IMG/VR virus record: IMGVR_UViG_3300036828_000667
Location: 1 to 64,000 of that record
DNA length: 64,000 nt
Strand: one strand, 5' to 3'
DNA from: a virus
In this document: one piece after another, positions 10,097 to 64,000 of the stretch
Layout: every line of letters starts with the position of its first letter
Position numbering within the stretch: the first letter of the stretch is position 1
The notes under the pieces: model-generated
Database searches by the model: none
Told to the model about the DNA's origin: nothing
What the model saw: only the letters and a program-made list of their open reading frames with translations
Program-made: the position numbers and the translations under genes

Positions 10097-10761
10097 ACAT
10101 ACAATCCCCAGAAGGTCGCTTCACTTAAAGCCCTAGGCACTACCTCTGGGTCCAAACTACCTATCTCCAATTCTTCGAAACCAACGTCCTTGATCAGTTT
10201 TTGAATGTCAATACCATCATTAGCCCATCCCCTCTCTAGAGTAGGAACAACTCTAGTTACATTGTTGACGACAAACATCTTGGCACCTGGGAAGAGGGAA
10301 TCCCTTATAGTCCTGAGATCTTCTTCAGGATCGAGACAATGCTGTAGAACCCATACAACGACAGCAAGATCAAACTTCATATGTTTCCTAATCATATCAA
10401 ATGATTTCGGAGAACAAGCGAAGAAGCTATCGTCATCTACATGATGGGCTGCAAAGCCTCTCATACTAGAACTTATGTCAACCCCTATGGCTGTGCAGTT
10501 ACTCTTGCTTATCAGTTCCTTGGAGATCCTTCCTATCCCACAACCATAGTCCAAAACAAACCTTTCTCCGGCGTCGAGTTTGACCTTAGAAAGGATCAGG
10601 TCGGTCAGGTATGGAGTTTCCCTAATCCACCTTTCTTTAGAGCTTTGATCAAACTCTGTAGTAAGGATAACATTTCTAGCCTGTTCCATACTAGGAACGT
10701 TGAAAACACCAGGATAATAAGTAGCCTCATCGTAAGCAGGCATAGTCATGTTGGTTTCCAT
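10087..10761 (-). CDS. class I SAM-dependent methyltransferase
   Basis: VLDYGCGIGR motif I, GVDISSSM, FDLAV...VLQH. Confidence 0.88.
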   Translation of the reverse strand: METNMTMPAYDEATYYPGVFNVPSMEQARNVILTTEFDQSSKERWIRETPYLTDLILSKVKLDAGERFVLDYGCGIGRISKELISKSNCTAIGVDISSSMRGFAAHHVDDDSFFACSPKSFDMIRKHMKFDLAVVVWVLQHCLDPEEDLRTIRDSLFPGAKMFVVNNVTRVVPTLERGWANDGIDIQKLIKDVGFEELEIGSLDPEVVPRALSEATFWGLYVWR

Positions 10762-16777: not shown

Positions 16778-17578
16778 CTACCCACTGTGAGGCAGGCTCA
16801 CCCCAACATTTGGAAGAACGGGCGAGACATCCGATGGACGCACCACACCAGCAGTCGCATTTGGCTGGACGTTCACGGGTGCGGTAACTGGCACTAAACC
16901 ACCAGCGTTCGGCCCTGTATAGTTGACTTGCTCGATATCAAGAATCGATACATTACTATAATCTTTTTCCTGTGCGACTCTCATAGCAATAGACTTGGCC
17001 TCTTCTGGAGAAGAAGCTCTAATCGATAGGTGCTCCGTTCGTGGCGTTTCTGTCTCCGGAGTCGAATACTGAATTTTCACGGCGAACGTATAGAGCCCTC
17101 CCGGAGCAGTGAGAGTAGGATCGTGACCTGCGAAGTCTTCACCAAACACAGCCACATGCACTGAACGCCTCATGGCATTTTCACTTATTTTCATGACTTG
17201 GGTTCCTGTCGTTACGATACAAGAATCACTGTAATGCGGTGACAGTTCCCAAGGAACATTAACACCGATATAGTTCAACGCTCTGGTGAGAATATCCCTA
17301 GGATTGTCTACACCGTATTGTTTAGCTAAAGTCCTAACCAAACTCCCTTGTGAGGTGTCATTGACCAAGGCCATGACATCCTCGACTGGCAAGTGATCTC
17401 CTCTTGCAATAGCATCAGTACTCGGATCACTAGGATCAGTATCAGGAGTACCAGGACGCTTAGACATCAGATGAATAGGGAGTGCATCTGAAAATGCGCA
17501 TATAAACTGGAAATCTCTTCGCGAGAAGTCATCTCCTAACATTCTTAATCTATCCCACACACGTAATGTCGTCACCAT
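16778..17578 (-). CDS. hypothetical protein (contains E1 match)
   Basis: 266 aa, GGAGA RBS. Confidence 0.75.
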   Translation of the reverse strand: MVTTLRVWDRLRMLGDDFSRRDFQFICAFSDALPIHLMSKRPGTPDTDPSDPSTDAIARGDHLPVEDVMALVNDTSQGSLVRTLAKQYGVDNPRDILTRALNYIGVNVPWELSPHYSDSCIVTTGTQVMKISENAMRRSVHVAVFGEDFAGHDPTLTAPGGLYTFAVKIQYSTPETETPRTEHLSIRASSPEEAKSIAMRVAQEKDYSNVSILDIEQVNYTGPNAGGLVPVTAPVNVQPNATAGVVRPSDVSPVLPNVGVSLPHSG

Positions 17579-20219: not shown

Positions 20220-20492
20220 TCATCCTGTAGGATGCTTAGAAGCATCTTCAGGTGTCTTTGCCTTATGGTGTTCTTCAGGTGCTTTTGCTTTATGGTCTTC
20301 AGGCTTCTTTGCCTTTACAGGCTCCTCGGGCGGGGGAGGCTCAACATGAACCGGGTAGACCGGCTGATCGTCAACGCCCTCGGGCTGATCGCCGAGCGTG
20401 TGGATCACGGGCCTAATCATCTCGTCCCGAGAATGACGATATTCTGGGAACCCACCATCAGCACCCACGATCTTTTCAACGTATTGAGCCAT
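20220..20492 (-). CDS. P/E/K-rich hypothetical protein (contains E2 match)
   Basis: AGGAGA RBS. Confidence 0.7.
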   Translation of the reverse strand: MAQYVEKIVGADGGFPEYRHSRDEMIRPVIHTLGDQPEGVDDQPVYPVHVEPPPPEEPVKAKKPEDHKAKAPEEHHKAKTPEDASKHPTG

Positions 20493-21104: not shown

Positions 21105-24100
21105 TCACGCAGCCATTTTAGTTTTAAAGGTGTACTCAATACGCCCTTTAACTGTAATATAAGCAGATGGATCAGCTGACCTAATCCATACGATCTCACG
21201 ATCGGCTATCAAGTGTATATCGCCTTGATTGTCTACCGAGTATGGCATAGTCGGAGTGATATCAAGTGATGGAGTATATGCTATGAAACACTCACCACGT
21301 CTGACTTCAAGAACTATGCCTATTGCAATATCTTGAACTAATCCAGACGCTATAGGTATCCAATCGCCCTTGACGTTGATCCACTCAAACGACAACATTC
21401 CCCCAGGCTGGAGGAAGTTTGGAAGATACCAGAATTTATTGGTAACGTATCCCCAGACTTGAGAAGTCTTAATATAAGCTAGAACACCACGTAGCTTACC
21501 AGCAATCGTAGTAACCAACGATCTACTATATAGAGATAGAGTTAGATAGACTGATCTAGATCCTTGGACAACCTGTGTCTGAGAAAGACGGATTAGTACC
21601 TCAATAGCAGTTTTAAGGAAATTCTGATTGATAACGATATTGACAATATGAGCCACAGTACCCTTAACTAATAAAATAGAAGAGTCGTATATCAATACGA
21701 TCTTAGCACGGTTCGGCCTGGGAAGCAAGAGGATTTCCCCTGAGACAAGGCCTACCCTCTTGACGACCGAAACAAGTCGCTGCACACTCTCAGCCTGAAT
21801 AAACGACACCAGCCTTCTGGCAATAGAGCTTCTCGTTATAATCTGAGACTGGAAGAGTAAGAACTGGCGAAGAGACGATCTGAGAGAGACCAACGTCTCT
21901 GGACTTACTACAGACAAAGACCTTGTAAATAGCTTACCAAAAGAACTGGTTAACACCCCATGACTAACAAACGTAGCTAGCCTGGACAACAGCTTAACAG
22001 CAGACACCAACTCAGATTGAGTCACAGCAATGATTCGACTTGGTATCTTTCCTATCGCAACGACACTAGAGTTTATAAAAGAGAGTGTCCTGTAGAATGA
22101 GACCATAGCAACTCTAGTAACAATCTCAGGATGCAATATGGATACGGTTTTTAGAAATGCTCTTTGGTTAAACTGAGTAACCACTTCGTGGCTAACGAAG
22201 GAAGCCAGTCTACCTGTCAGTCTAATCAATGAGTAGAGTTGAGACTGAGTGAGTGTTGTAAGCCGACCGACAACCCTAGAGACCGAAGCGACCTGCGACT
22301 GAGCAAATACTGCTAGCTCTGGACGCGTAACCTGACGAGTAATCAGTTGTCCAATCAGTGTAGACAAGGTCTTAAAAAATGCCTTCTGATTGAACTGAGT
22401 TACAATCTCGGGACTAGAGAACTGTTTGATCCTACTAAATACCTTAACTAGACTAATAGCTTCACTTGAAACCAGAGACCTTATACTAGTAATCGCTCTA
22501 GCGGACGACAGTATCTGAGACTGTTGAAATATCCCGTAAGCTGTATTCCTGGTAGACATAAGTATGGATATAGCTGTATGAACTATTATAGTTCTACTTG
22601 TCAAAGTTATATGTGTAATGAATTCTCCAGTCGAGAAGGTAAAGGTTTTGGTAGTTGAAATTGCCCTAGTGAAAATTTGTGGATTCGTAGTTAGAATCGA
22701 CTGTAGTTTAGTTCTGATAGCTGAATAAGTCAGAACTTCTGCGAGTGTAGTCTTGACGATCTTAACAGCCTGACGTACGGCTGTAAGAGCTTCACTGCTG
22801 GTAGCGACGATCGACCGAGTGACAACCCTAACTAAGAAGACGGCTTCAGAGCTAGCCAACGTCAACATACGCGAAGACAGCCTAACCAGAGACAAGAATT
22901 CAGAACTGGTTAAGGTAACAGTCCTAAAGAACGTTTTGATTTGACTTAAAGACAAACTCTCACTAATCGATAGGGTAACTACTCTAAACCTACTAGAGAC
23001 CCTGGCTAATGTCAGAGACTCAGGACTTGCAGTAGTTATAACATGAGAAACACTACCTATAACATCTGCATACAATTCAGAACTAGTAATAGATATTGTA
23101 CGTAGTAAGCTCTTGACTCTAGTCAGGGTTAATACTTCATTGGTAATCACTGTTATAATACGGGAAATACTACCTATTACGTCTGCATACAATTGAGAGC
23201 TAACAAGAGATATGAGTTTTTGGTTTACTACTACACCGGACTGAAACTGCGTAACTGCAGTTACTAGTTCTCCAATCGAGAATACCCTGAATCTACCAGG
23301 AATCTTAGCTAGTGTAAGTGTTTCTCCACTAACGACAGCTACGATATGTGAAATGCTACGTATTATACCAGCATACAATTCAGAGCTAGTAAGAGTTATG
23401 GTACGTAGTAAGCTCTTGACTCTAGTCAGGGTTAATACTTCACTGCTAGTAACTATTATAATATGAGAAATACTACCTATAACATCTGCATACAATTGAG
23501 AGCTAGTAAGATATATCGTGCGTAGTAGACTCTTAATTCTAGTCAGAGTCAGTACTTCATTGCTAGTCACTGTTATGATATGAGAAACACTATCTATTAC
23601 ATCAGAGTAGAATTCGGAACTGGTAATAGATACGATATGAATATACTGTCTAACTGTAGTTATCGTCTCGACTATCGACAACGTGATTGTTCTAAACTTA
23701 CTTGAAATCCTAGCGAGTGTAAGTATCTCTGGACTAGAAATCTGTAAGAACTTGGCAGTAATCTTTGCAGTAACTCTAGAGACTAATTCAGGATCGACGA
23801 AGACCAGCATCTTAGTAACTGATCTAATAAGATACACAGCCGAAGAATTGAAGAAAACCGTAACTCTCGATATGCTCATAACAAATTTTGATAGACTAGG
23901 TTGAATAACAAGTAACTTACCTGTTACGTTCTTATTAACGAAGTTAGCCCCAGTAATCATAGAAAGCATAGGGTTAATCGTAACAAGCTTTCGAGTACCA
24001 AAGGTTTGATACGTTGGAATAGCAGTTAGTGTCTCCGCAATCGACAACGTAACCGTCCTAAACCTACTAGAAATGCTGAATAGCGTAAACGCCTCTGGAT

Positions 24101-25025
24101 TAAATACGCCTAAAACTCTAGATATATTCGATATCCTAGTAAGACTCTCAGAACTCGTTAAAGTTATTGTCCTAAAACTCTGTACAGATCGTATACCAGT
24201 AACTACCTGATGTGAAGTTATAGTAGTAATTGCTTTCTGACGTAGAATAGATCGTATACCAGTAACTGCCGGATGTGAAGTTATAGTAGTAATTGCTTTC
24301 TGACGTAGAATAGATCGTATACCAGTAACTGCCAGATGCAAAGGTGCAACTGTTATCGGCAGTTGGGTTACAACTGGACCACCACCACCAGAAAAATCAG
24401 GTGTAACAATAGTAGCTGTACCAATTCTAAATAGTACGTCAGAGCTACCGTTAGCACTTGCTGTAGTCAGTACCCATTCAAGCTGAATGAACAAATACTC
24501 ATTACTCAATACTATAGGAGATCCGCTGTTCATAACAATCGTTATACTAGAATTAGTGTCTACAGTAGTTGATAAGGTAATATTCGCACATTGAAAAGTT
24601 GCTTGTAACTTAGTAGCTGCAGAACCATCGGCATTTGCCGATTTCCATACCTGGGCAGCAATATTCCCAATAGCGCCAGCTACAGTAGCACGCATATTAA
24701 AATTAAAAGTCCAAGCTGTGCCTGCAAAAGTACCTGTATATGCCGGAGTTATAAAACTATCACCAGCCCCAGCATTAGTAGCATCACTACCTTTTGTTGG
24801 ACCGGAAGAAAAAATACCAATTGGATCAGTAAAAGCAGAAGCTGAAGAAGTAGATGATGCGCCTAACCTAGAAGCAAAATATGGCGTACTAGTAGAAGTA
24901 GTACCTACAAGCCAGCCATAGGTGGAGTTGGCTGCAGTCGGAGCAGTACCGCCATCTTGTAATTGACCAAAGAAATTAGGTGACGGAGCAGCCGTACCAA
25001 GGATATACAGTGTTTTAATAGCCAC
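21105..25025 (-). CDS. second giant S/T/I/V/R-rich repeat protein with globular N-domain
   Basis: 1306 aa; T.TSSE.LT repeats; shares TGANFV.KNVTGKL with 4551-9284. Confidence 0.72.
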   Translation of the reverse strand: MAIKTLYILGTAAPSPNFFGQLQDGGTAPTAANSTYGWLVGTTSTSTPYFASRLGASSTSSASAFTDPIGIFSSGPTKGSDATNAGAGDSFITPAYTGTFAGTAWTFNFNMRATVAGAIGNIAAQVWKSANADGSAATKLQATFQCANITLSTTVDTNSSITIVMNSGSPIVLSNEYLFIQLEWVLTTASANGSSDVLFRIGTATIVTPDFSGGGGPVVTQLPITVAPLHLAVTGIRSILRQKAITTITSHPAVTGIRSILRQKAITTITSHQVVTGIRSVQSFRTITLTSSESLTRISNISRVLGVFNPEAFTLFSISSRFRTVTLSIAETLTAIPTYQTFGTRKLVTINPMLSMITGANFVNKNVTGKLLVIQPSLSKFVMSISRVTVFFNSSAVYLIRSVTKMLVFVDPELVSRVTAKITAKFLQISSPEILTLARISSKFRTITLSIVETITTVRQYIHIVSITSSEFYSDVIDSVSHIITVTSNEVLTLTRIKSLLRTIYLTSSQLYADVIGSISHIIIVTSSEVLTLTRVKSLLRTITLTSSELYAGIIRSISHIVAVVSGETLTLAKIPGRFRVFSIGELVTAVTQFQSGVVVNQKLISLVSSQLYADVIGSISRIITVITNEVLTLTRVKSLLRTISITSSELYADVIGSVSHVITTASPESLTLARVSSRFRVVTLSISESLSLSQIKTFFRTVTLTSSEFLSLVRLSSRMLTLASSEAVFLVRVVTRSIVATSSEALTAVRQAVKIVKTTLAEVLTYSAIRTKLQSILTTNPQIFTRAISTTKTFTFSTGEFITHITLTSRTIIVHTAISILMSTRNTAYGIFQQSQILSSARAITSIRSLVSSEAISLVKVFSRIKQFSSPEIVTQFNQKAFFKTLSTLIGQLITRQVTRPELAVFAQSQVASVSRVVGRLTTLTQSQLYSLIRLTGRLASFVSHEVVTQFNQRAFLKTVSILHPEIVTRVAMVSFYRTLSFINSSVVAIGKIPSRIIAVTQSELVSAVKLLSRLATFVSHGVLTSSFGKLFTRSLSVVSPETLVSLRSSLRQFLLFQSQIITRSSIARRLVSFIQAESVQRLVSVVKRVGLVSGEILLLPRPNRAKIVLIYDSSILLVKGTVAHIVNIVINQNFLKTAIEVLIRLSQTQVVQGSRSVYLTLSLYSRSLVTTIAGKLRGVLAYIKTSQVWGYVTNKFWYLPNFLQPGGMLSFEWINVKGDWIPIASGLVQDIAIGIVLEVRRGECFIAYTPSLDITPTMPYSVDNQGDIHLIADREIVWIRSADPSAYITVKGRIEYTFKTKMAA
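24186..24330. repeat. 63-bp in-frame tandem repeat, about 2.3 copies
   Basis: agatcgtataccagtaact at 24186, 24249, 24312. Confidence 0.9.
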
Positions 25026-34278: not shown

Positions 34279-34436
34279 AACCGCTCACCACACCTAACCC
34301 CAAGGGGAGGCTCTGGACGGGCTTTCCCGTGGCCCTGTGGGGGGTAGCTGGGGAGCCGGAAATCTGCACTGGCGGGCTTCTAAGCAGAGCCTGGACCCAC
34401 TTGCCATCCAATAGATCCATGGGGTAAGAACAATAT

Positions 34437-34511
34437 GCATACCGCCCCTCTCCAGGCCGCTGCACGGCATACCGAACCGCCCCTGCCCTGACCAAAGCAC
34501 ACCGCACCATA
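34437..34511 (+). ncRNA. pentamer element E3, 15 units
   Basis: TTGCCA 34401; ends GCACA CCGCA CCATA CTTT. Confidence 0.85.
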
Positions 34512-39315: not shown

Positions 39316-39380
39316 CCACTTCACCCCGAACCGACCCGAACCATGCCACCCCGATCTGCACCCGTCCGCTCCATACCACA
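39316..39380 (+). ncRNA. pentamer element E4, 13 units
   Basis: TTGACT 39285; ends CCATA CCACA CTTTTT. Confidence 0.82.
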
Positions 39381-39401
39381 CTTTTTATATCACACATATA
39401 T

Positions 39402-40176: not shown

Positions 40177-40258
40177 GACCGTCTATCCCATCCGAACCAG
40201 TCCAATCCTATCCTATGCACACCGCACAGAATGACCTAAGAGAAATCTTAGGTCATTC
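40177..40258 (+). ncRNA. pentamer element E5 (8-10 units) with GAAA-loop hairpin
   Basis: TTGACT 40148; GCACA CCGCA; 13-bp stem 40229-40258. Confidence 0.85.
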
Positions 40259-40263
40259 GCTTT

Positions 40264-40476
40264 TCAATCAGTGTCATAACCATCTGCGCTATAGTAGTTA
40301 TTTTCGTGGTACGGACACTCTTCTCTCATGAGAGCTAAGCAACGGCGAATAGATGCACTGCTTGTCCCATAGGACTCAACCACGTGGTCGCACCTTGAAC
40401 AAGTAACCTTGACACTGGGAACTTCCCCGTGATCACCTTCCAATTCGATTTCATCTATGGTACATTTTACCTTCAT
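40264..40476 (-). CDS. small Cys-rich protein (contains E5 match)
   Basis: CSRC, RRCL..MREECP. Confidence 0.7.
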   Translation of the reverse strand: MKVKCTIDEIELEGDHGEVPSVKVTCSRCDHVVESYGTSSASIRRCLALMREECPYHENNYYSADGYDTD

Positions 40477-40682
40477 GGCGCATCGTCAGGCCAGTATTTG
40501 AACTGGTTCCTAGATTGCCAATTATATATAGGTTGCCAGATCCCAATCTTCGCTAGTAGCTTCAAATACAATGGAGCGGCAGCATGACAAGCAACTAGCA
40601 TCTGATCGTAATGATCGTTGTGAGCCTTGATCCGGTCAAGAAAGGGAGTCTCTCCCTTCGTATGTTCACCGATTGATCCCAT
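40473..40682 (-). CDS. hypothetical protein (contains E6 match)
   Basis: ATG 40682 after GGAGG. Confidence 0.65.
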   Translation of the reverse strand: MGSIGEHTKGETPFLDRIKAHNDHYDQMLVACHAAAPLYLKLLAKIGIWQPIYNWQSRNQFKYWPDDAP

Positions 40683-40729
40683 ATCCCCCTCCACTTGACT
40701 CACAAAGATTATTTGGCTACTATCCAAAC

Positions 40730-40811
40730 GCGAGCCAAACCGGTCCACTCCACGCCCCTCCTTCGCTTACCGATCCACACAGAATGGCCTGAGAGAAATC
40801 TTGGGCCATTC
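40730..40811 (+). ncRNA. pentamer element E6 (10 units) with GAAA-loop hairpin
   Basis: TTGACT 40695-N17-TACTAT; stem 40782-40811 with two G-U pairs. Confidence 0.85.
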
Positions 40812-40920
40812 GCTATTCCATTGCCTTCACGGTAAAGATTTCGTCAACCTGACCACCACACGTGCAAGGCCAGTATCTCATAATTTAGCATTTGCGTTCA
40901 CCACAAACCTTCGTCATTGT

Positions 40921-44223: not shown

Positions 44224-44309
44224 GTAGTAGGTTTTCCTGTTGTGCTAGTTTAACTGAGATAAGGGCGGTAGGTCCCCTCGATCCCTCCCCAGCCCAGCCC
44301 CTCCCGGCA

Positions 44310-45497: not shown

Positions 45498-45557
45498 TAT
45501 GGTGTGGTATGCTGCGGTGTGGTTCGAGGGGCCGCGGGCTGGTTTGGTTAGGGTTGC
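45498..45557 (-). ncRNA. pentamer element E8, 12 units
   Basis: NNN-GG/GC register on plus; tandem with E9. Confidence 0.8.
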
Positions 45558-45578
45558 AGAACACAGTATGAACTAAAG

Positions 45579-45633
45579 TATGGTGCGGTATGCTGAGGAT
45601 TGCGATGGTCTGCGCTGGGTCGCTGTGCTAGGC
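45579..45633 (-). ncRNA. pentamer element E9, 11 units
   Basis: TTGACT(-) 45663-45668 N17 TATGGC; ends GCATA CCGCA CCATA. Confidence 0.82.
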
Positions 45634-45674
45634 AGACAAGCCATACCAAACGGTGGATTCGGAGTCAAGGGAGA

Positions 45675-47188: not shown

Positions 47189-47268
47189 TATGGTGCGGTG
47201 TGCAGCGGTTAGGCATGGGATGGGCGGGCTGGCGACGGCGAGGCACGGGTTGCATTGGTGTGGGTTGG
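47189..47268 (-). ncRNA. pentamer element E10, 16 units
   Basis: follows hairpin 47281-47317; ends GCACA CCGCA CCATA CTTTT. Confidence 0.85.
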
Positions 47269-47325
47269 TAGGATAGAGGACAAAGGACCAGAAGATTAGA
47301 TATCCTCTGATCCTTTGAACAGATG

Positions 47326-47390
47326 TGCGGTTTGGTATGCTGTGGGCCGGCACGGCTGGGGGTGGCGCGGGAAGGCTTGGCATGGCTTGC
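47326..47390 (-). ncRNA. pentamer element E11, 13 units
   Basis: TTGACT(-) 47421-47426 N17 TAGTCT. Confidence 0.88.
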
Positions 47391-47433
47391 ACCAAAAAGA
47401 CTACTACCAAACTTACCGCTAGTCAACCACTAT

Positions 47434-47847
47434 TTACCTGATACGCTGCACTAAGCAACCTTCCGATTTTGCCTGCCACGTCCCACACCACTGGCCAGCT
47501 TCAACAGGTCGCAAGATCCACTTTCGTGAATATTCCCAGATCGGAACGACCTTTTTTTCCATGACCTTCTGGCCGTTCTCGTCTAAGACGAGTTTGTTCT
47601 TTTCACCCCGCTTAGACCGTGAGATTTCCTGTGTCCCGACTTGCGTGGCAAATTTCATTTTGACCGCGGACACAGCTGAACCCAAAGTTTTCATGGGATC
47701 GGGCATCTTCTCGGTCTTAGCTGCGAAGAAGCTCTGTCCGACGCCCAATTTATCAAGAGGATATTTGGCGACCCCATTACGGTTACCACGTTTCGACTTC
47801 GGCATTTCCACCGCGTCGATGATTTCAAACGTCACTTGCTCTTCCAT
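47434..47847 (-). CDS. putative DNA-binding phage protein (contains E10 and E11 matches)
   Basis: KYPLDKLGVGQSFF motif. Confidence 0.75.
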   Translation of the reverse strand: MEEQVTFEIIDAVEMPKSKRGNRNGVAKYPLDKLGVGQSFFAAKTEKMPDPMKTLGSAVSAVKMKFATQVGTQEISRSKRGEKNKLVLDENGQKVMEKKVVPIWEYSRKWILRPVEAGQWCGTWQAKSEGCLVQRIR

Positions 47848-49433: not shown

Positions 49434-49805
49434 TTGGACTTGCGCCTAGGATGGAGAATACCCAGGAGGATTGGCAAGATCCTTGGTTACCTGGAAGGGT
49501 TCAAATCCCTACATCCCTTGCCCTTAAGAAAGTTCAACCTTCCACCAAAAATAGGGGAAAGACCTTTGAAGAAAGAAAAGAAGGAGAAGGAGAACAAGGC
49601 ATATACTATAGCCGACGAACTATCCAATTGGCTAACTAAAAACAAAGTAGATATAGGTGATGCTATCGATGCCATGGCTAGGTTAATAGGATTGGCTGTA
49701 GGTGTCAGCGTAGACTATGAGGAAATAGAAACCATACTACAGAATATCTACAAGGAAAGTCTCAAAGCGGCGTACTTTTCGTATAAAAAGAATCAAGCTA
49801 ACTAG
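49434..49805 (+). CDS. hypothetical protein (start probably internal; contains E12 match)
   Basis: helical C-terminal half looks coding. Confidence 0.6.
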   Translation: MDLRLGWRIPRRIGKILGYLEGFKSLHPLPLRKFNLPPKIGERPLKKEKKEKENKAYTIADELSNWLTKNKVDIGDAIDAMARLIGLAVGVSVDYEEIETILQNIYKESLKAAYFSYKKNQAN

Positions 49806-49913
49806 ACCAGTATAACAATGGGAGGCTACAATGAAAAAAAGTGTAAGTGGGGCTGGTGACTTACCACCAGCCCCTTTGGACTACGCTGTCTCTTATTCTC
49901 AGGGACTAAATTG

Positions 49914-49978
49914 TGCGGTTTGGCCTGCAGCGGAGCGGATAGGCTAGGTTCGGATAGGCAAGGAAAGGCGTGGTATGA
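49914..49978 (-). ncRNA. pentamer element E12, 12-13 units
   Basis: TTGACA(-) 50011-50016; ends CCAAA CCGCA. Confidence 0.85.
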
Positions 49979-50027
49979 ACAATCACTCCCTTAGCCTAGC
50001 TCACAAAAGCTGTCAAGGTTCTTTTCG

Positions 50028-50552
50028 ATGTACTTACCACCTTGGGTGAAGGTCGACATGATTGCACTGAAAAATAGAAAACGGTTATCACAGTTGGTCA
50101 GGATGCTAAGTTCTGGCCATCAAGGTGAAGCAATGGCAGCCAGAGACGCTGTTCAAAAAATCTGTTCTTTTAACGATCTAGCAGATTTGATCGAGAGTGG
50201 TAGTGATTTTAAAAAAGCAGAATTGCAGTTCGTGTACGACTCAGGACATGAGGATGGATTCAAAAAAGGTTTTGAAAAAGGGCTTCAAGAAGGAAAACTC
50301 GGTAGTAATAGCTCACGTCCTCCTCCCAGTTCTCATAAGAAGGGCGACATTTTCTTCGACATTGGCGATAAACCTGACATAATTAAAGAAAAGATACAAT
50401 TTTGTCAAAAGCATAAAGATAGACTCAGAAAAGATAGGGAAAAAGAATTCATCGCCAATATAGTTAATTGGACCACGGTTTTAAATAGACCTCTAACTCC
50501 AGGTCAAGAGAACTGGCTAAACGATATATACGCCAGACTAGGGGGTAAATAA
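50028..50552 (+). CDS. conserved phage hypothetical protein
   Basis: RMLSS.H.GE..AA; REKEFI; LTPGQENWL.DIY. Confidence 0.7.
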   Translation: MYLPPWVKVDMIALKNRKRLSQLVRMLSSGHQGEAMAARDAVQKICSFNDLADLIESGSDFKKAELQFVYDSGHEDGFKKGFEKGLQEGKLGSNSSRPPPSSHKKGDIFFDIGDKPDIIKEKIQFCQKHKDRLRKDREKEFIANIVNWTTVLNRPLTPGQENWLNDIYARLGGK

Positions 50553-52382: not shown

Positions 52383-52437
52383 TGCGGTATGGGATGCATG
52401 GGGCAGGTCCGGCAGGGTAAGCGTCGGGGTGGGGTGG
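52383..52437 (-). ncRNA. pentamer element E13, 11 units
   Basis: TTGACA(-) 52469-52474; ends CCATA CCGCA CAATTTT. Confidence 0.83.
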
Positions 52438-52711
52438 ACAAAGCTTCATTACTATCATTGCAATCCATTGTCAAGAAGTCTAAAATCAAGCCTCCCGTCC
52501 TCCCCTGGCTGGAGCATAGGATGAAAAAAGGCCCATATCGCAGAAGAACCCTTGTCAGAAAATACAGGTTTCATCCCTATGAGAATTTTGAGTCAGGTAA
52601 GGGATGGAACCTTCCCCATAACAGAAAAAGGGTAAAGAAACATCATGGTCCAGCACTAAATAAACTAGGTCAATTAAGACGTTTTTGGATTACTGTTACA
52701 AGAACATACAG

Positions 52712-56158: not shown

Positions 56159-56437
56159 ATGAAATACTCTAAGGATCGGAGACAAACCATGGATCACGCT
56201 GAACTTCTTGCTAACCTCAATACAGCACTAGACAACTTCGTGAACAGTAGTGATGGAACTAAGCAAGAACTGAAAGATGATCTCGAAGACTTTCGAGACG
56301 ATATAGACGGACGTATCATGGCCCTGGAAGAAGAAATCGAGGAGGAGCAAGGCGAAGATACAGATGAAGATGAAGGAGATGACGGTGAGGAAGCGCCGAT
56401 TGTAGAAACGGGAGAAATGGGAGAAGAGCCGAAGTAA
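56159..56437 (+). CDS. very acidic small protein (contains E14 match)
   Basis: D/E-rich; start probably 56189. Confidence 0.7.
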   Translation: MKYSKDRRQTMDHAELLANLNTALDNFVNSSDGTKQELKDDLEDFRDDIDGRIMALEEEIEEEQGEDTDEDEGDDGEEAPIVETGEMGEEPK

Positions 56438-56445
56438 TAGAGATT

Positions 56446-56544
56446 AAGTCATCCTCTGTTTTTGAAATGACAGAGGATGACTTGTGCGGTTTGGTTAGGA
56501 ATGCAGTGGCTCGGCAGGGTTCGCTTCGGTTTGGTATGGTTCGA
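56446..56544 (-). ncRNA. pentamer element E14 (11-12 units) with 3' hairpin
   Basis: TTGACA(-) 56576-56581 N17 TACGTC; stem 56446-56483. Confidence 0.85.
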
Positions 56545-56565: not shown

Positions 56566-57183
56566 TTGACCGTCTTGTCAAATGGGTGCAAAATGTCCAA
56601 GAAGTTCTCAATATCAGTGGACCATAATGCATTAAGGCAATTTCCGTTTCTGGATCGACTCCAGAAACAACAATTCCCCATTTCAACCCTCAATGAAGTT
56701 ATGTACGTTCTTGAAAATAGACCTGAAGGATTCAAAATCGAGTTGGTTTATAGTGTATTGAAAGTGTCGTTAATTAACGTCAATAGAGACACCAATGACG
56801 ACTACTTGGGATTGCCGAAGATTGAAGGTCAGTTGAAAGACCTGTGTGATGTGATCAGAGAGACCACGTCATATGGAACACGTGGGGGAGTCGACCCAAG
56901 GACACAAATATATTATAGTAGGAAGTCGTCTATTCTACAGGGTAGTAACCTTAGTGATGATGCTCTGATAGCTCCTAATTATGTTTCTAATAGAGGTTTG
57001 AGAAAACGCCATCCTCTTGATCTTGTGTCCACAGAAGAGGTCGTTAAAAGAAGGGAACTTGCTAACCGACACTGGCAAGAACAGAAAAAAGAGCAACGAA
57101 GAAAACAACAGTCCAGTATCAACTCAAAAATCCGGAATGCTCAGGACTTTTTGACAAGAAGCAATTTTGACAAGAAGCAATAA
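56566..57183 (+). CDS. hypothetical protein (contains E15 match)
   Basis: start probably 56593. Confidence 0.7.
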   Translation: MTVLSNGCKMSKKFSISVDHNALRQFPFLDRLQKQQFPISTLNEVMYVLENRPEGFKIELVYSVLKVSLINVNRDTNDDYLGLPKIEGQLKDLCDVIRETTSYGTRGGVDPRTQIYYSRKSSILQGSNLSDDALIAPNYVSNRGLRKRHPLDLVSTEEVVKRRELANRHWQEQKKEQRRKQQSSINSKIRNAQDFLTRSNFDKKQ

Positions 57184-57201
57184 TAATGTTAACCTTCTTC
57201 G

Positions 57202-57299
57202 GCGAACCGGTCCAATCCGAACCGACCCTATCCCTACCGGACCCTTGCACAGCATACCGCACATCTACCCCTCAGGCTGTATTACACAGCCTGAGGGGT
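57202..57299 (+). ncRNA. pentamer element E15 (12 units) with 3' hairpin
   Basis: TTGACA 57167 N17 TAACCT; stem 57267-57299. Confidence 0.87.
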
Positions 57300-62625: not shown

Positions 62626-62811
62626 ATGCGTTGCGATCGGTGTCAGGGAACAGGCTGGGATCGGGCAGGAGTACACCCTGTACTTGGGCCGCTCTTCGAT
62701 TGCAACCATCCGTGTACTGAATGCGGCGGGTCAGGCATCGCCCACTGTTGCGACGGCATCTGCGAACAGCCTTCAATTGACAAGTCTATAGATGACAAGC
62801 TAACATCTTGA
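62626..62811 (+). CDS. small DnaJ-like zinc-finger protein
   Basis: CDRCQGTG, CTECGGSG. Confidence 0.6.
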   Translation: MRCDRCQGTGWDRAGVHPVLGPLFDCNHPCTECGGSGIAHCCDGICEQPSIDKSIDDKLTS

Positions 62812-62812
62812 C

Positions 62813-62877
62813 GCCTACCGTACCACTCCGACGCCAACCACACCGAGCCGGTCCATACCTTTCCAAACCAAACCACA
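62813..62877 (+). ncRNA. pentamer element E16, 13 units
   Basis: TTGACA 62777 N18 TAACAT; ends CCAAA CCACA CTTTTTT. Confidence 0.85.
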
Positions 62878-62932
62878 CTTTTTTATTACTACTAGATATT
62901 CAGGAAAGGCGAACATGAGAGGTTAGGTTAAA

Positions 62933-63410: not shown

Positions 63411-63514
63411 TCGAACCGCTGCCTTGCTTGCCAAACCGGGCCAAGCCGGCGCGGACCAAACCTCCGCACACCGCACAATGGGAGTAGTCAAATGGCTTGC
63501 AGACTACTCCCATT
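63411..63514 (+). ncRNA. pentamer element E17 (13 units) with 3' hairpin
   Basis: TTGACC 63369; GCACA CCGCA; stem 63477-63514. Confidence 0.88.
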
Positions 63515-63533: not shown

Positions 63534-64000
63534 ATGCTAATTTCAGTCACGATCTCCGGAATCCGACCTTTAATCCTCGACGCGTTTTCCGAGGAAGCGT
63601 TGCTTAAGGGGAAGGGAGGAAAGAGTACAGCCCAGCCCAAGGAACTGAGTCCCTTGGATCAAGCCAAGCGTAGGTTATACTATAATGGAGATGGTACCGA
63701 CGTTCCTATATTCCCAGCAGACAACCTACTCAGCTGTATCATCGCTGCCGGGCGGTTTATCAAGGTCGGGAAAAGGCAACTAACTACTCGCGACAGTACG
63801 ACAGTAACTTCATTCCTACAGATATCAGAACTATATCTTCCCATTAGGTCGATAGATGGATGGCGAGTCGACTCCAGGAGCATCGTCAACCCGTCTACAA
63901 AAGGTCGTCACATATGCTACCGTCCCATCTTTGACGACTGGGAGTTAGATTTCACGCTCGACATCGATACGAATGAAGCGAGCGACAGCTTGGTTAGACA
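63534..64000 (+). CDS. RAMP/Cas7-like protein, truncated by the window end (not in ORF track)
   Basis: AGGAG RBS; MLISVTISGIRPLIL..., PIFPADNLLSCI, D.R.IV...GRH..YRPIFDDWELDFTL.ID; no stop to 64000. Confidence 0.7.
   Translation, partial: MLISVTISGIRPLILDAFSEEALLKGKGGKSTAQPKELSPLDQAKRRLYYNGDGTDVPIFPADNLLSCIIAAGRFIKVGKRQLTTRDSTTVTSFLQISELYLPIRSIDGWRVDSRSIVNPSTKGRHICYRPIFDDWELDFTLDIDTNEASDSLVR

Follow-up and report, generated by a model that had tools for sequence, protein, structure and literature searches.

Why should a short tract of five-base units resemble the gene beside it, read backwards and with the third base of each codon left free? The question is raised by an element that we call E12. 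We analysed a window of 64,000 nucleotides, which is the first 64 kb of a 113,838-bp virus record (IMG/VR record IMGVR_UViG_3300036828_000667); coordinates above 64,000 refer to the remainder of that record. The record has portal and tail-fibre PHROG matches, and its DNA is present in two soil-metagenome runs. E12 is very probably a guide RNA gene, a vrRNA of the VIPR system, and its match to the neighbouring gene follows a gapped code that skips the wobble base.

On the plus strand, which is the G-rich strand of the element, the E12 tract reads GGTTT GGCCT GCAGC GGAGC GGATA GGCTA GGTTC GGATA GGCAA GGAAA GGCGT GGTAT. The triplets of variable bases, read along the complementary C-rich strand, are ATA ACG TTT TTG TAT GAA TAG TAT GCT GCT AGG AAA. 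The two units closest to position 49917 are part of a conserved handle. E12 stands between the ORF 49434-49805, which is followed by a hairpin, and the next gene, which starts at 50028 (all features are listed in Table 1). This neighbouring ORF belongs to no Pfam or PHROG family, and no relatives of the gene after E12 were found in IMG/VR. The hairpin could be a terminator for the gene on the plus strand and also for an E12 transcript on the minus strand, where a T run follows. A sigma-70-like promoter on the minus strand ends 11 nt ahead of the tract.

The stretch that E12 resembles lies 122 nt from the element, 5-12 codons ahead of the stop of the neighbouring ORF. In frame with this ORF the gene reads GCG GCG TAC TTT TCG TAT AAA AAG. 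The reverse complement of the E12 triplets includes GCA GCA TAC TAT TCA TAC AAA AAC, just as an earlier, sequence-only reading of this DNA had written it. The two strings share 18 of 24 bases and encode six identical amino acids out of eight. The earlier reading had described E12 as antisense to its neighbour with unit position 5 on the wobble position. The mismatches of the core bear this out: five of the six fall on codon position 3, the remaining one on position 2. A frame shift of one base had been claimed as well. This offset is found between the codon frame and the boundaries of the reverse-complemented triplets, and it brings position 5 of the C-strand unit onto codon position 3. The reversed, wobble-phased match of E12 to its neighbouring gene is real.

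E12 belongs to a family. Runs of at least five GGNNN units occur 121 times in the window, compared to 1.3 expected from shuffled sequences. Register-aware scans resolve about 29-30 elements between 16.6 and 68.3 kb. About 17 of these are intergenic singletons or pairs (solo guides), spread over 52 kb. One guide lies upstream of a gene for a 213-aa protein, vipr, and an array of about 10 units lies directly behind it. Every element starts, on the G-rich strand, with (T/A)GT(G/A)(C/T), for example TGTGC or AGTAT, followed by GGTGY, GGTNT and GC. After this handle come 5-20 units per element. Across 294 units the first position is G in 97%, the second is G in 81% or C in 16%, and positions 3-5 are variable. 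The third base is not restricted to pyrimidines (A.21, C.20, G.22, T.36).

Table 1. Positions of the features discussed in the text. Solo guides are predicted vrRNA genes; NN gives the identity over the two bases of each unit that are read.
Feature	Position (nt)	Strand	Details
Solo guide	16673-16757		Matches flanking gene 16778-17578, core NN 24/26
Solo guide	20549-20608		Matches flanking ORF 20220-20492, core NN 17/18
Solo guide	34434-34508		No match in this genome
Solo guide	39323-39382		No match in this genome
Solo guide	40184-40223		Matches flanking gene 40264-40476, core NN 13/14
Solo guide	40727-40776		Weaker match to flanking gene 40473-40748, NN 13/16
Solo guide	45501-45560		No match in this genome
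Solo guide	45582-45636		No match in this genome
Solo guide, paired with 47329-47393	47192-47271		No match in this genome
Solo guide, first of the pair with 47192-47271	47329-47393		Matches flanking gene 47434-47847 (DUF7303), NN 20/20 over 10 units
Neighbour ORF of E12	49434-49805	+	123 aa
Eight codons matched by E12	49767-49790	+	AAYFSYKK; NN identity 15/16; unread base on codon position 3
G+C-rich hairpin between neighbour gene and E12	49849-49874		GGGGCTGGTG-actta-CACCAGCCCC
Conserved handle of E12	49912-49916		TGTGC (C strand: GCACA)
E12 pentamer tract	49917-49976		12 units, G(G/C)NNN on + strand, NNN(C/G)C on - strand
Sigma-70-like promoter	49988-50016	-	TTGACA (50016-50011), 17-nt spacer, TAAGGG (49993-49988)
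Solo guide	52386-52440		No match in this genome
Solo guide	56488-56542		Weak match to flanking gene 56159-56437, core NN 13/14, local p about 0.02
Solo guide	57199-57258		Weak match to flanking gene 56566-57183
Solo guide	62810-62879		No match in this genome
Guide E17, upstream of vipr	63413-63477		Triplets read EALLKGKGGKSTA, identical to vipr codons 21-33
vipr gene	63534-64175 (beyond window end 64000)	+	213 aa, RAMP/Cas7-like, phrog_4652
66-aa ORF inside the vrRNA array	64949-65149 (past window end)		Shine-Dalgarno-like AAGGAG
81-aa ORF directly after the array	65437-65682		HNH endonuclease family phrog_374, E 2.5e-14
Second guide of the antisense class	68198-68282		Matches 68402-68452, 3' end of minus-strand gene 68353-69909

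Two short GG-periodic runs (44280-44305 and 10593-10614) have no conserved handle and are unlikely to be vrRNA genes. Tandem repeats at 23344-23632 and 24186-24338, with periods (117 nt and 63 nt) that are divisible by three, lie inside a 1306-aa ORF (21105-25025), which probably encodes a repeat-containing structural protein.

We decoded all elements and searched the genome with target periodicities of 2, 3, 4 and 5, that is, with skips of 0-3 nt. Among 29 elements only a skip of one base gives a signal in the neighbouring genes, with scores of 11.5-28 compared to at most 11 for skips of 0, 2 and 3. This points to recognition with a one-base skip in this phage. For 11 of the 29 elements the best or a near-best match is found in the directly flanking gene. 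These 11 are nine solo guides and two guides beside vipr (E17 and unit A), each located in the intergenic region that flanks its matched gene. All 11 matches place the skipped base on codon position 3. Several guides attain an NN identity of 92-100% in the core, and five have 80-95% NN identity to their own neighbour over the full length.

The matches use both strands. The string of the C-rich strand is gene-sense in nine matches and antisense in two (E12 and 68198-68282). The core of the guide 68198-68282 has an NN identity of 21/24, which none of 4000 shuffles attains, and the skip again falls on the wobble position. The sequence-only reading had suggested tabulating strand and phase, with a random phase of further antisense matches speaking against it. 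Within this genome the two antisense matches are not random in phase. It had also argued that either strand can be matched and that the target is therefore probably dsDNA. The split of nine to two, together with the published homologues, agrees with this view. DNA-level recognition would be the unifying reading, because one polarity class cannot pair with mRNA, whichever strand is transcribed.

The unread base carries information of its own. In split codon boxes the guide triplet is synonymous with the gene codon in 49 of 53 cases, where a random base would give 25.7 (p < 5e-5). Four-fold boxes show a random unread base, with 5 identities, 12 transitions and 20 transversions. Where the read bases mismatch, 8 of 17 codons are block switches of Leu, Arg or Ser. 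E17 and unit A show how far this can go: 13 of 13 and 17 of 20 residues, respectively, are identical to vipr at about 65% nucleotide identity, Leu/Arg/Ser block switches included. Between E17 and vipr (63594-63629) the NN identity is 20/24, and the mismatches are found where Leu and Ser codons change block. Third bases seemed to differ in excess (anticorrelation), but this is not significant on the full count of synonymous split-box pairs (18 of 47 identical).

These counts refine what had been said about position 5, namely that it tolerates mismatches and makes guides robust to synonymous change. The robustness fits the 11 unread bases on codon position 3 as well as the published systems, where the same is found. 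The position does lie at the wobble, but it is not free of information, since it keeps the synonymous class of the codon. As far as the codons tell, an unread base that keeps codon meaning is the signature of two coding homologues that have diverged to synonymous saturation. This suggests a foreign allele of the adjacent gene as the source that the guides were copied from or keep track of, down to the third base.

The protein that would read such guides is found in the same genome. The 213-aa protein has no Pfam family. It matches 'SUSP1 Vipr protein' (PDB 36pp_D) with an E value of 4.7e-5, in residues 124-174 only (about 50 residues). Its AlphaFold (AF2) model has a pLDDT of 81.8 and matches Csm3/Cas7 RAMPs in Foldseek (E about 1e-6, TM about 0.5). 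We found 95 homologues, none of them closer than 66% protein identity. A Vipr homologue occurs in 80 viral (IMG/VR) loci, mostly with pentamer arrays beside the gene, and SUSP1's own locus has the same unit type as the pentamers of this phage. Two further ORFs belong to the locus. The 66-aa ORF is a truncated paralogue of the C-terminal part of Vipr, G-loop included (phrog_4652, E 1.9e-9), and guide unit A resembles both vipr copies, the full gene and the truncated paralogue. The 81-aa HNH-like ORF has no Pfam match; its PHROG family makes it a possible nuclease-type vap.

VIPR (Viral Interference Programmable Repeat), which resembles CRISPR in that an RNA guides the binding to DNA, was first described in 2026 (bioRxiv 10.64898/2026.04.26.720920, PMC13142463; 10.64898/2026.04.26.720927, structures; 10.64898/2026.10.15.759431; together the VIPR preprints). 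It consists of Vipr, vrRNA and Vap, and Escherichia phage SUSP1 is the type II exemplar (VIPR preprints). Vipr is a small ancestral RAMP, and cryo-EM reveals a Vipr filament that sequesters GGY and forms an R-loop triplex (VIPR preprints). The published vrRNAs, all of them G-type, have 9-16 YNNGG repeats and a tail; NNNGG units are named as an alternative in the methods (VIPR preprints). The RNP pairs the NN bases only and skips one target base, and the purified RNP needs this 1-nt skip to bind dsDNA (VIPR preprints). Skipped bases lie overwhelmingly at wobble positions, targets occur on both strands and a GFP reporter is silenced from either strand (VIPR preprints). According to the VIPR authors, wobble skipping defeats escape by synonymous mutation (VIPR preprints). 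Activity is known for the SUSP1 and P. fulva systems only (VIPR preprints). For the types examined there are no self hits at an NN identity of at least 80%, and there is precedent for self-match scores below those of non-self matches (VIPR preprints).

What had been concluded from E12 is therefore right and already published. The VIPR code was found a second time, independently and from sequence alone: even when a guide is directed at the other strand, its unread base stays at the wobble. E12 adds an example from a soil phage and no new principle.

The likeness of the locus to VIPR extends well beyond this point. Both are phage-borne, with a small stand-alone RAMP, here similar in sequence to SUSP1 Vipr. 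In both, the guides consist of 8-20 pentamers in which variable bases accompany a constant G-G, and vipr has a single guide ahead of it and an array behind. Both skip one target base on the wobble position, with sites on both strands. Both include guides aimed at early and late vipr codons as well as solo vrRNAs. There are also differences. Unlike those of the VIPR exemplar, the units here are of the NNNGG kind, and the second G is a C in 16% of them. Read on the G-rich strand, the handle here and the 3' tail of SUSP1 are found at opposite ends of their tracts. In place of SUSP1's vap1, the array is followed by a small HNH-like ORF. Furthermore, about 17 solo guides are scattered over 52 kb and 11 guides flank the gene that they match, unlike in published VIPR.

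Three features are apparently unreported in the three VIPR preprints: dispersed solo vrRNAs with 11 guides flanking matched genes, a skipped guide base that keeps its codon meaning (49 of 53 synonymous) and promoter and terminator signals that favour the C-rich strand. We regard the locus as a variant of VIPR because its guides are dispersed and adjacent to what they match, because the unread base remembers the codon and because of these polarity signals. The dispersed guides, their adjacency and the codon-following base bear on two questions left open in the preprints: where guides come from and how self-silencing is avoided.

The backbones of Class 1 CRISPR-Cas systems, in which Cas7 or Csm3 line a crRNA, are similar in several respects. 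They share the RAMP fold (Foldseek finds Csm3, type VII Cas7 and Cas7-11, E about 1e-6), one protein subunit per period of RNA and periodically unpaired bases. In contrast to these systems, the locus lacks cas genes, cas1/cas2 included, and has no unique spacers set between identical direct repeats. Two bases are read per period of 5 nt, compared to five per 6 nt in the CRISPR-Cas backbones, and the target is gapped as well. The guides are also separate mini-genes, each running from promoter to terminator. Tandem-repeat and Rfam scans found no CRISPR repeat; the sole RAMP gene found stands alone, and the units share only the short handle.

A different parallel comes from the free-standing homing endonuclease genes of T4-like phages (seg/mob), known for 'intronless homing'. 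There, a selfish targeting function sits in an intergenic region beside a resident, insensitive allele, and foreign alleles are attacked. In our locus, unlike in seg/mob, the specificity resides in an RNA guide, and the known VIPR activity is binding and silencing, not cleavage and co-conversion.

Other candidates were dropped early: G-quadruplex tracts, protein-binding repeats of the TRAP, CsrA or Hfq type, extended ribosome-binding leaders, a DGR or retron template, and a planted or synthetic sequence. They were dropped because of the Vipr homology, the literature, the DNA in two soil-metagenome runs and the relatives in IMG/VR. Scans for tRNAs and Rfam families found nothing, and a phage GenBank collection gave neither a DNA nor a protein match.

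By analogy with published homologues, E12 would be a stand-alone vrRNA gene of the phage's VIPR system, expressed and assembled into an RNP. As in SUSP1 VIPR, copies of Vipr would form a row on the RNA, with one copy for each pentamer, holding its constant bases and presenting its variable dinucleotide. The filament would then read dsDNA in a gapped manner, with two bases paired and one target base skipped. Binding would form an R-loop-like triplex and block transcription, if dsDNA binding and silencing proceed as in the homologues. With a target period of three and the skip on the wobble, such a guide reads codon positions 1 and 2, and hence can be written against either DNA strand. The pentamer family, the Vipr homologue, the gapped rule, its wobble phase, the use of both strands and the adjacency of guide and gene are demonstrated at the level of the DNA letters.

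What do the guides aim at? We lean towards a foreign target. In related phages that compete with this one, a foreign allele of the adjacent gene would be the target of E12 and its sister guides, and the resident copy would be a diverged, tightly linked and partly mismatched homologue. The basis for this reading is the full-length NN identity of E12 to the resident gene (67-75%), the excess of synonymous split-box codons, the codon-block switches and the published lower self scores. The resident gene falls below the published criterion of 80% NN identity and by that measure would not count as a target of E12; it may not be the functional target. However, the guide 47329-47393 matches its own neighbour at every read base. 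It looks like true self-targeting and speaks against the foreign-allele reading.

No perfect external target was found with the N-skip patterns of unit A (in IMG/VR viral contigs) and E12 (in IMG/VR and JGI metagenome contigs). We also compared, all against all, the guides of the sub-clade (this phage and its closest relatives L002, L003 and L008) with 1.2 Mb of DNA comprising this genome and 80 related loci. No cross-phage target rose above the control in this search, and the relatives' own loci contained no self hits. In the complete genome of L002 (47.6 kb), the array is accompanied by no more than one pentamer run elsewhere, and a dispersed set is absent.

Alternatively, the guides may regulate their own genome. 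Solo vrRNAs would bind their resident neighbours, E17 and unit A would bind vipr, and the phage would time or damp its own expression. Adjacency would then reflect the birth of guides by local duplication. We consider autoregulation, the main rival of the foreign-allele reading, possible, if on the unlikely side. It would account for all 11 matched guides standing in the intergenic region directly beside the matched gene, for the core NN identities of 92-100% and the 20 of 20 of guide 47329-47393, and for the five guides with at least 80% over the full length. However, an RNP that acts in trans needs no adjacency. E12 and most of the others have, not counting the two handle units, two mismatched outer guide units, and these together with the Leu, Arg and Ser block switches are expected of a diverged homologue. 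Were a guide to co-evolve with a resident target, its unread bases would not stay within the synonymous class. The published surveys, moreover, are without self-targeting at 80% or above.

The foreign-allele reading can be taken one step further, to a proposal that we regard as doubtful. Solo vrRNAs could be linked cassettes of a guide plus an insensitive allele. Each guide would be a codon-by-codon copy, wobble included, of the foreign allele, with two constant bases per codon. The guide may be kept beside the resident mismatched allele so that recombinants never part the weapon from the immunity. If the HNH-like ORF acts together with the complex, this could be RNA-guided marker exclusion or homing between related phages. 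If the proposal is true, the codon memory in the unread base is the first clue to the birth of vrRNA guides.

Control at the RNA level, with the elements pairing as antisense with the neighbouring mRNA and not with DNA, is very unlikely. The elements do lie near the matched gene, and the G-rich strand is mostly the local gene-sense strand, which would put an antisense-like tract into the same transcript. However, with polarities of nine and two (E12 and 68198), one class cannot pair with mRNA. Homologous RNPs also bind dsDNA and silence from either strand.

It is more improbable still that the resemblance between E12 and its neighbour arose by chance. Over its full length the guide is no more similar to the gene (15/20 to 16/24) than the best random match in 1.2 Mb of other phage DNA. 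Furthermore, 11 of 300 shuffled guides (3.7%) attain the E12 score somewhere in the genome. Yet, by dinucleotide scoring, the neighbour match is E12's best in the entire 113.8-kb genome (14, runner-up 12), and it is close by. Only 1 of 4000 shuffles of the unit order attains the score within +-600 nt (p about 2.5e-4). The phase is correct, the split-box codons of the two antisense matches (E12 and 68198) are synonymous in eight of eight cases and ten sister elements behave alike. Since the full-length identity is no better than random, the significance of E12 rests on proximity, the contiguous core of eight units, the phase and these ten sister elements.

We give next to no credence to hidden coding, in which triplets would be decoded as amino acids, for example by skipping of the CC dinucleotide, into peptides identical to parts of the neighbouring protein: the residues shared by E17 and unit A with vipr and the synonymous split-box codons are what it would predict, but in-phase stop codons interrupt seven elements, E12 among them, two of the matches (E12 and 68198) are antisense, the tracts have no start codons or ribosome sites, and guides copied from or tracking a coding homologue explain the pattern fully in a family whose members are experimentally shown to be guide RNAs. 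Literal decoding of the tracts was rejected on account of the seven elements with stops and the two antisense matches.

Which strand is transcribed? The handle and its hairpin lie 5' of the tract on the G-rich strand and 3' of it on the C-rich strand. Of the 15 solo units at the head of a cluster, 13 are preceded on the C-rich strand by TTGAC(A/T), 32-41 nt before the first unit, usually with a hexamer starting with TA 17-18 nt further on. A hairpin follows the handle on this strand, sometimes with a T run. A generic scan for promoters and terminators stays near background overall, and the folding energies of the post-handle region do not single out either strand. From the position of these signals, the C-rich strand is probably the transcribed one.

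The G-rich strand runs opposite to vipr in this phage and in L002, L003 and L008. In contrast, it is co-directional with vipr in 164 of 188 elements of more distant relatives and in SUSP1. Either the guides of this sub-clade are G-type, have a 5' handle and are transcribed from promoters that we do not recognise, or the RNA is C-type. All published vrRNAs are G-type; hence, if the C-strand signals are taken at face value, either the polarity or the motif that Vipr reads would be different here from the model system. It is a possibility that the sub-clade reads C-type repeats, or all three variable bases. The organisation thus draws attention to a sub-clade that may depart from the model system in its transcribed strand or in the motif that is read.

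Two local arrangements were seen at solo guides. At guide 57199-57258 the plus strand carries a duplicated TTGACA promoter (57149-57181) and a terminator (57267-57299). The promoter region is an exact tandem duplication of TTTTGACAAGAAGCAA, which places two -35-like boxes before the guide. The hairpins after guides 40184 and 40727 (40192-40260 and 40745-40815) are paralogous, with GAATGACCTAAG and GAATGGCCTGAG arms. They differ by one compensatory change from A-T to G-C and by two changes that lead to G-U pairs on the C-strand RNA only.
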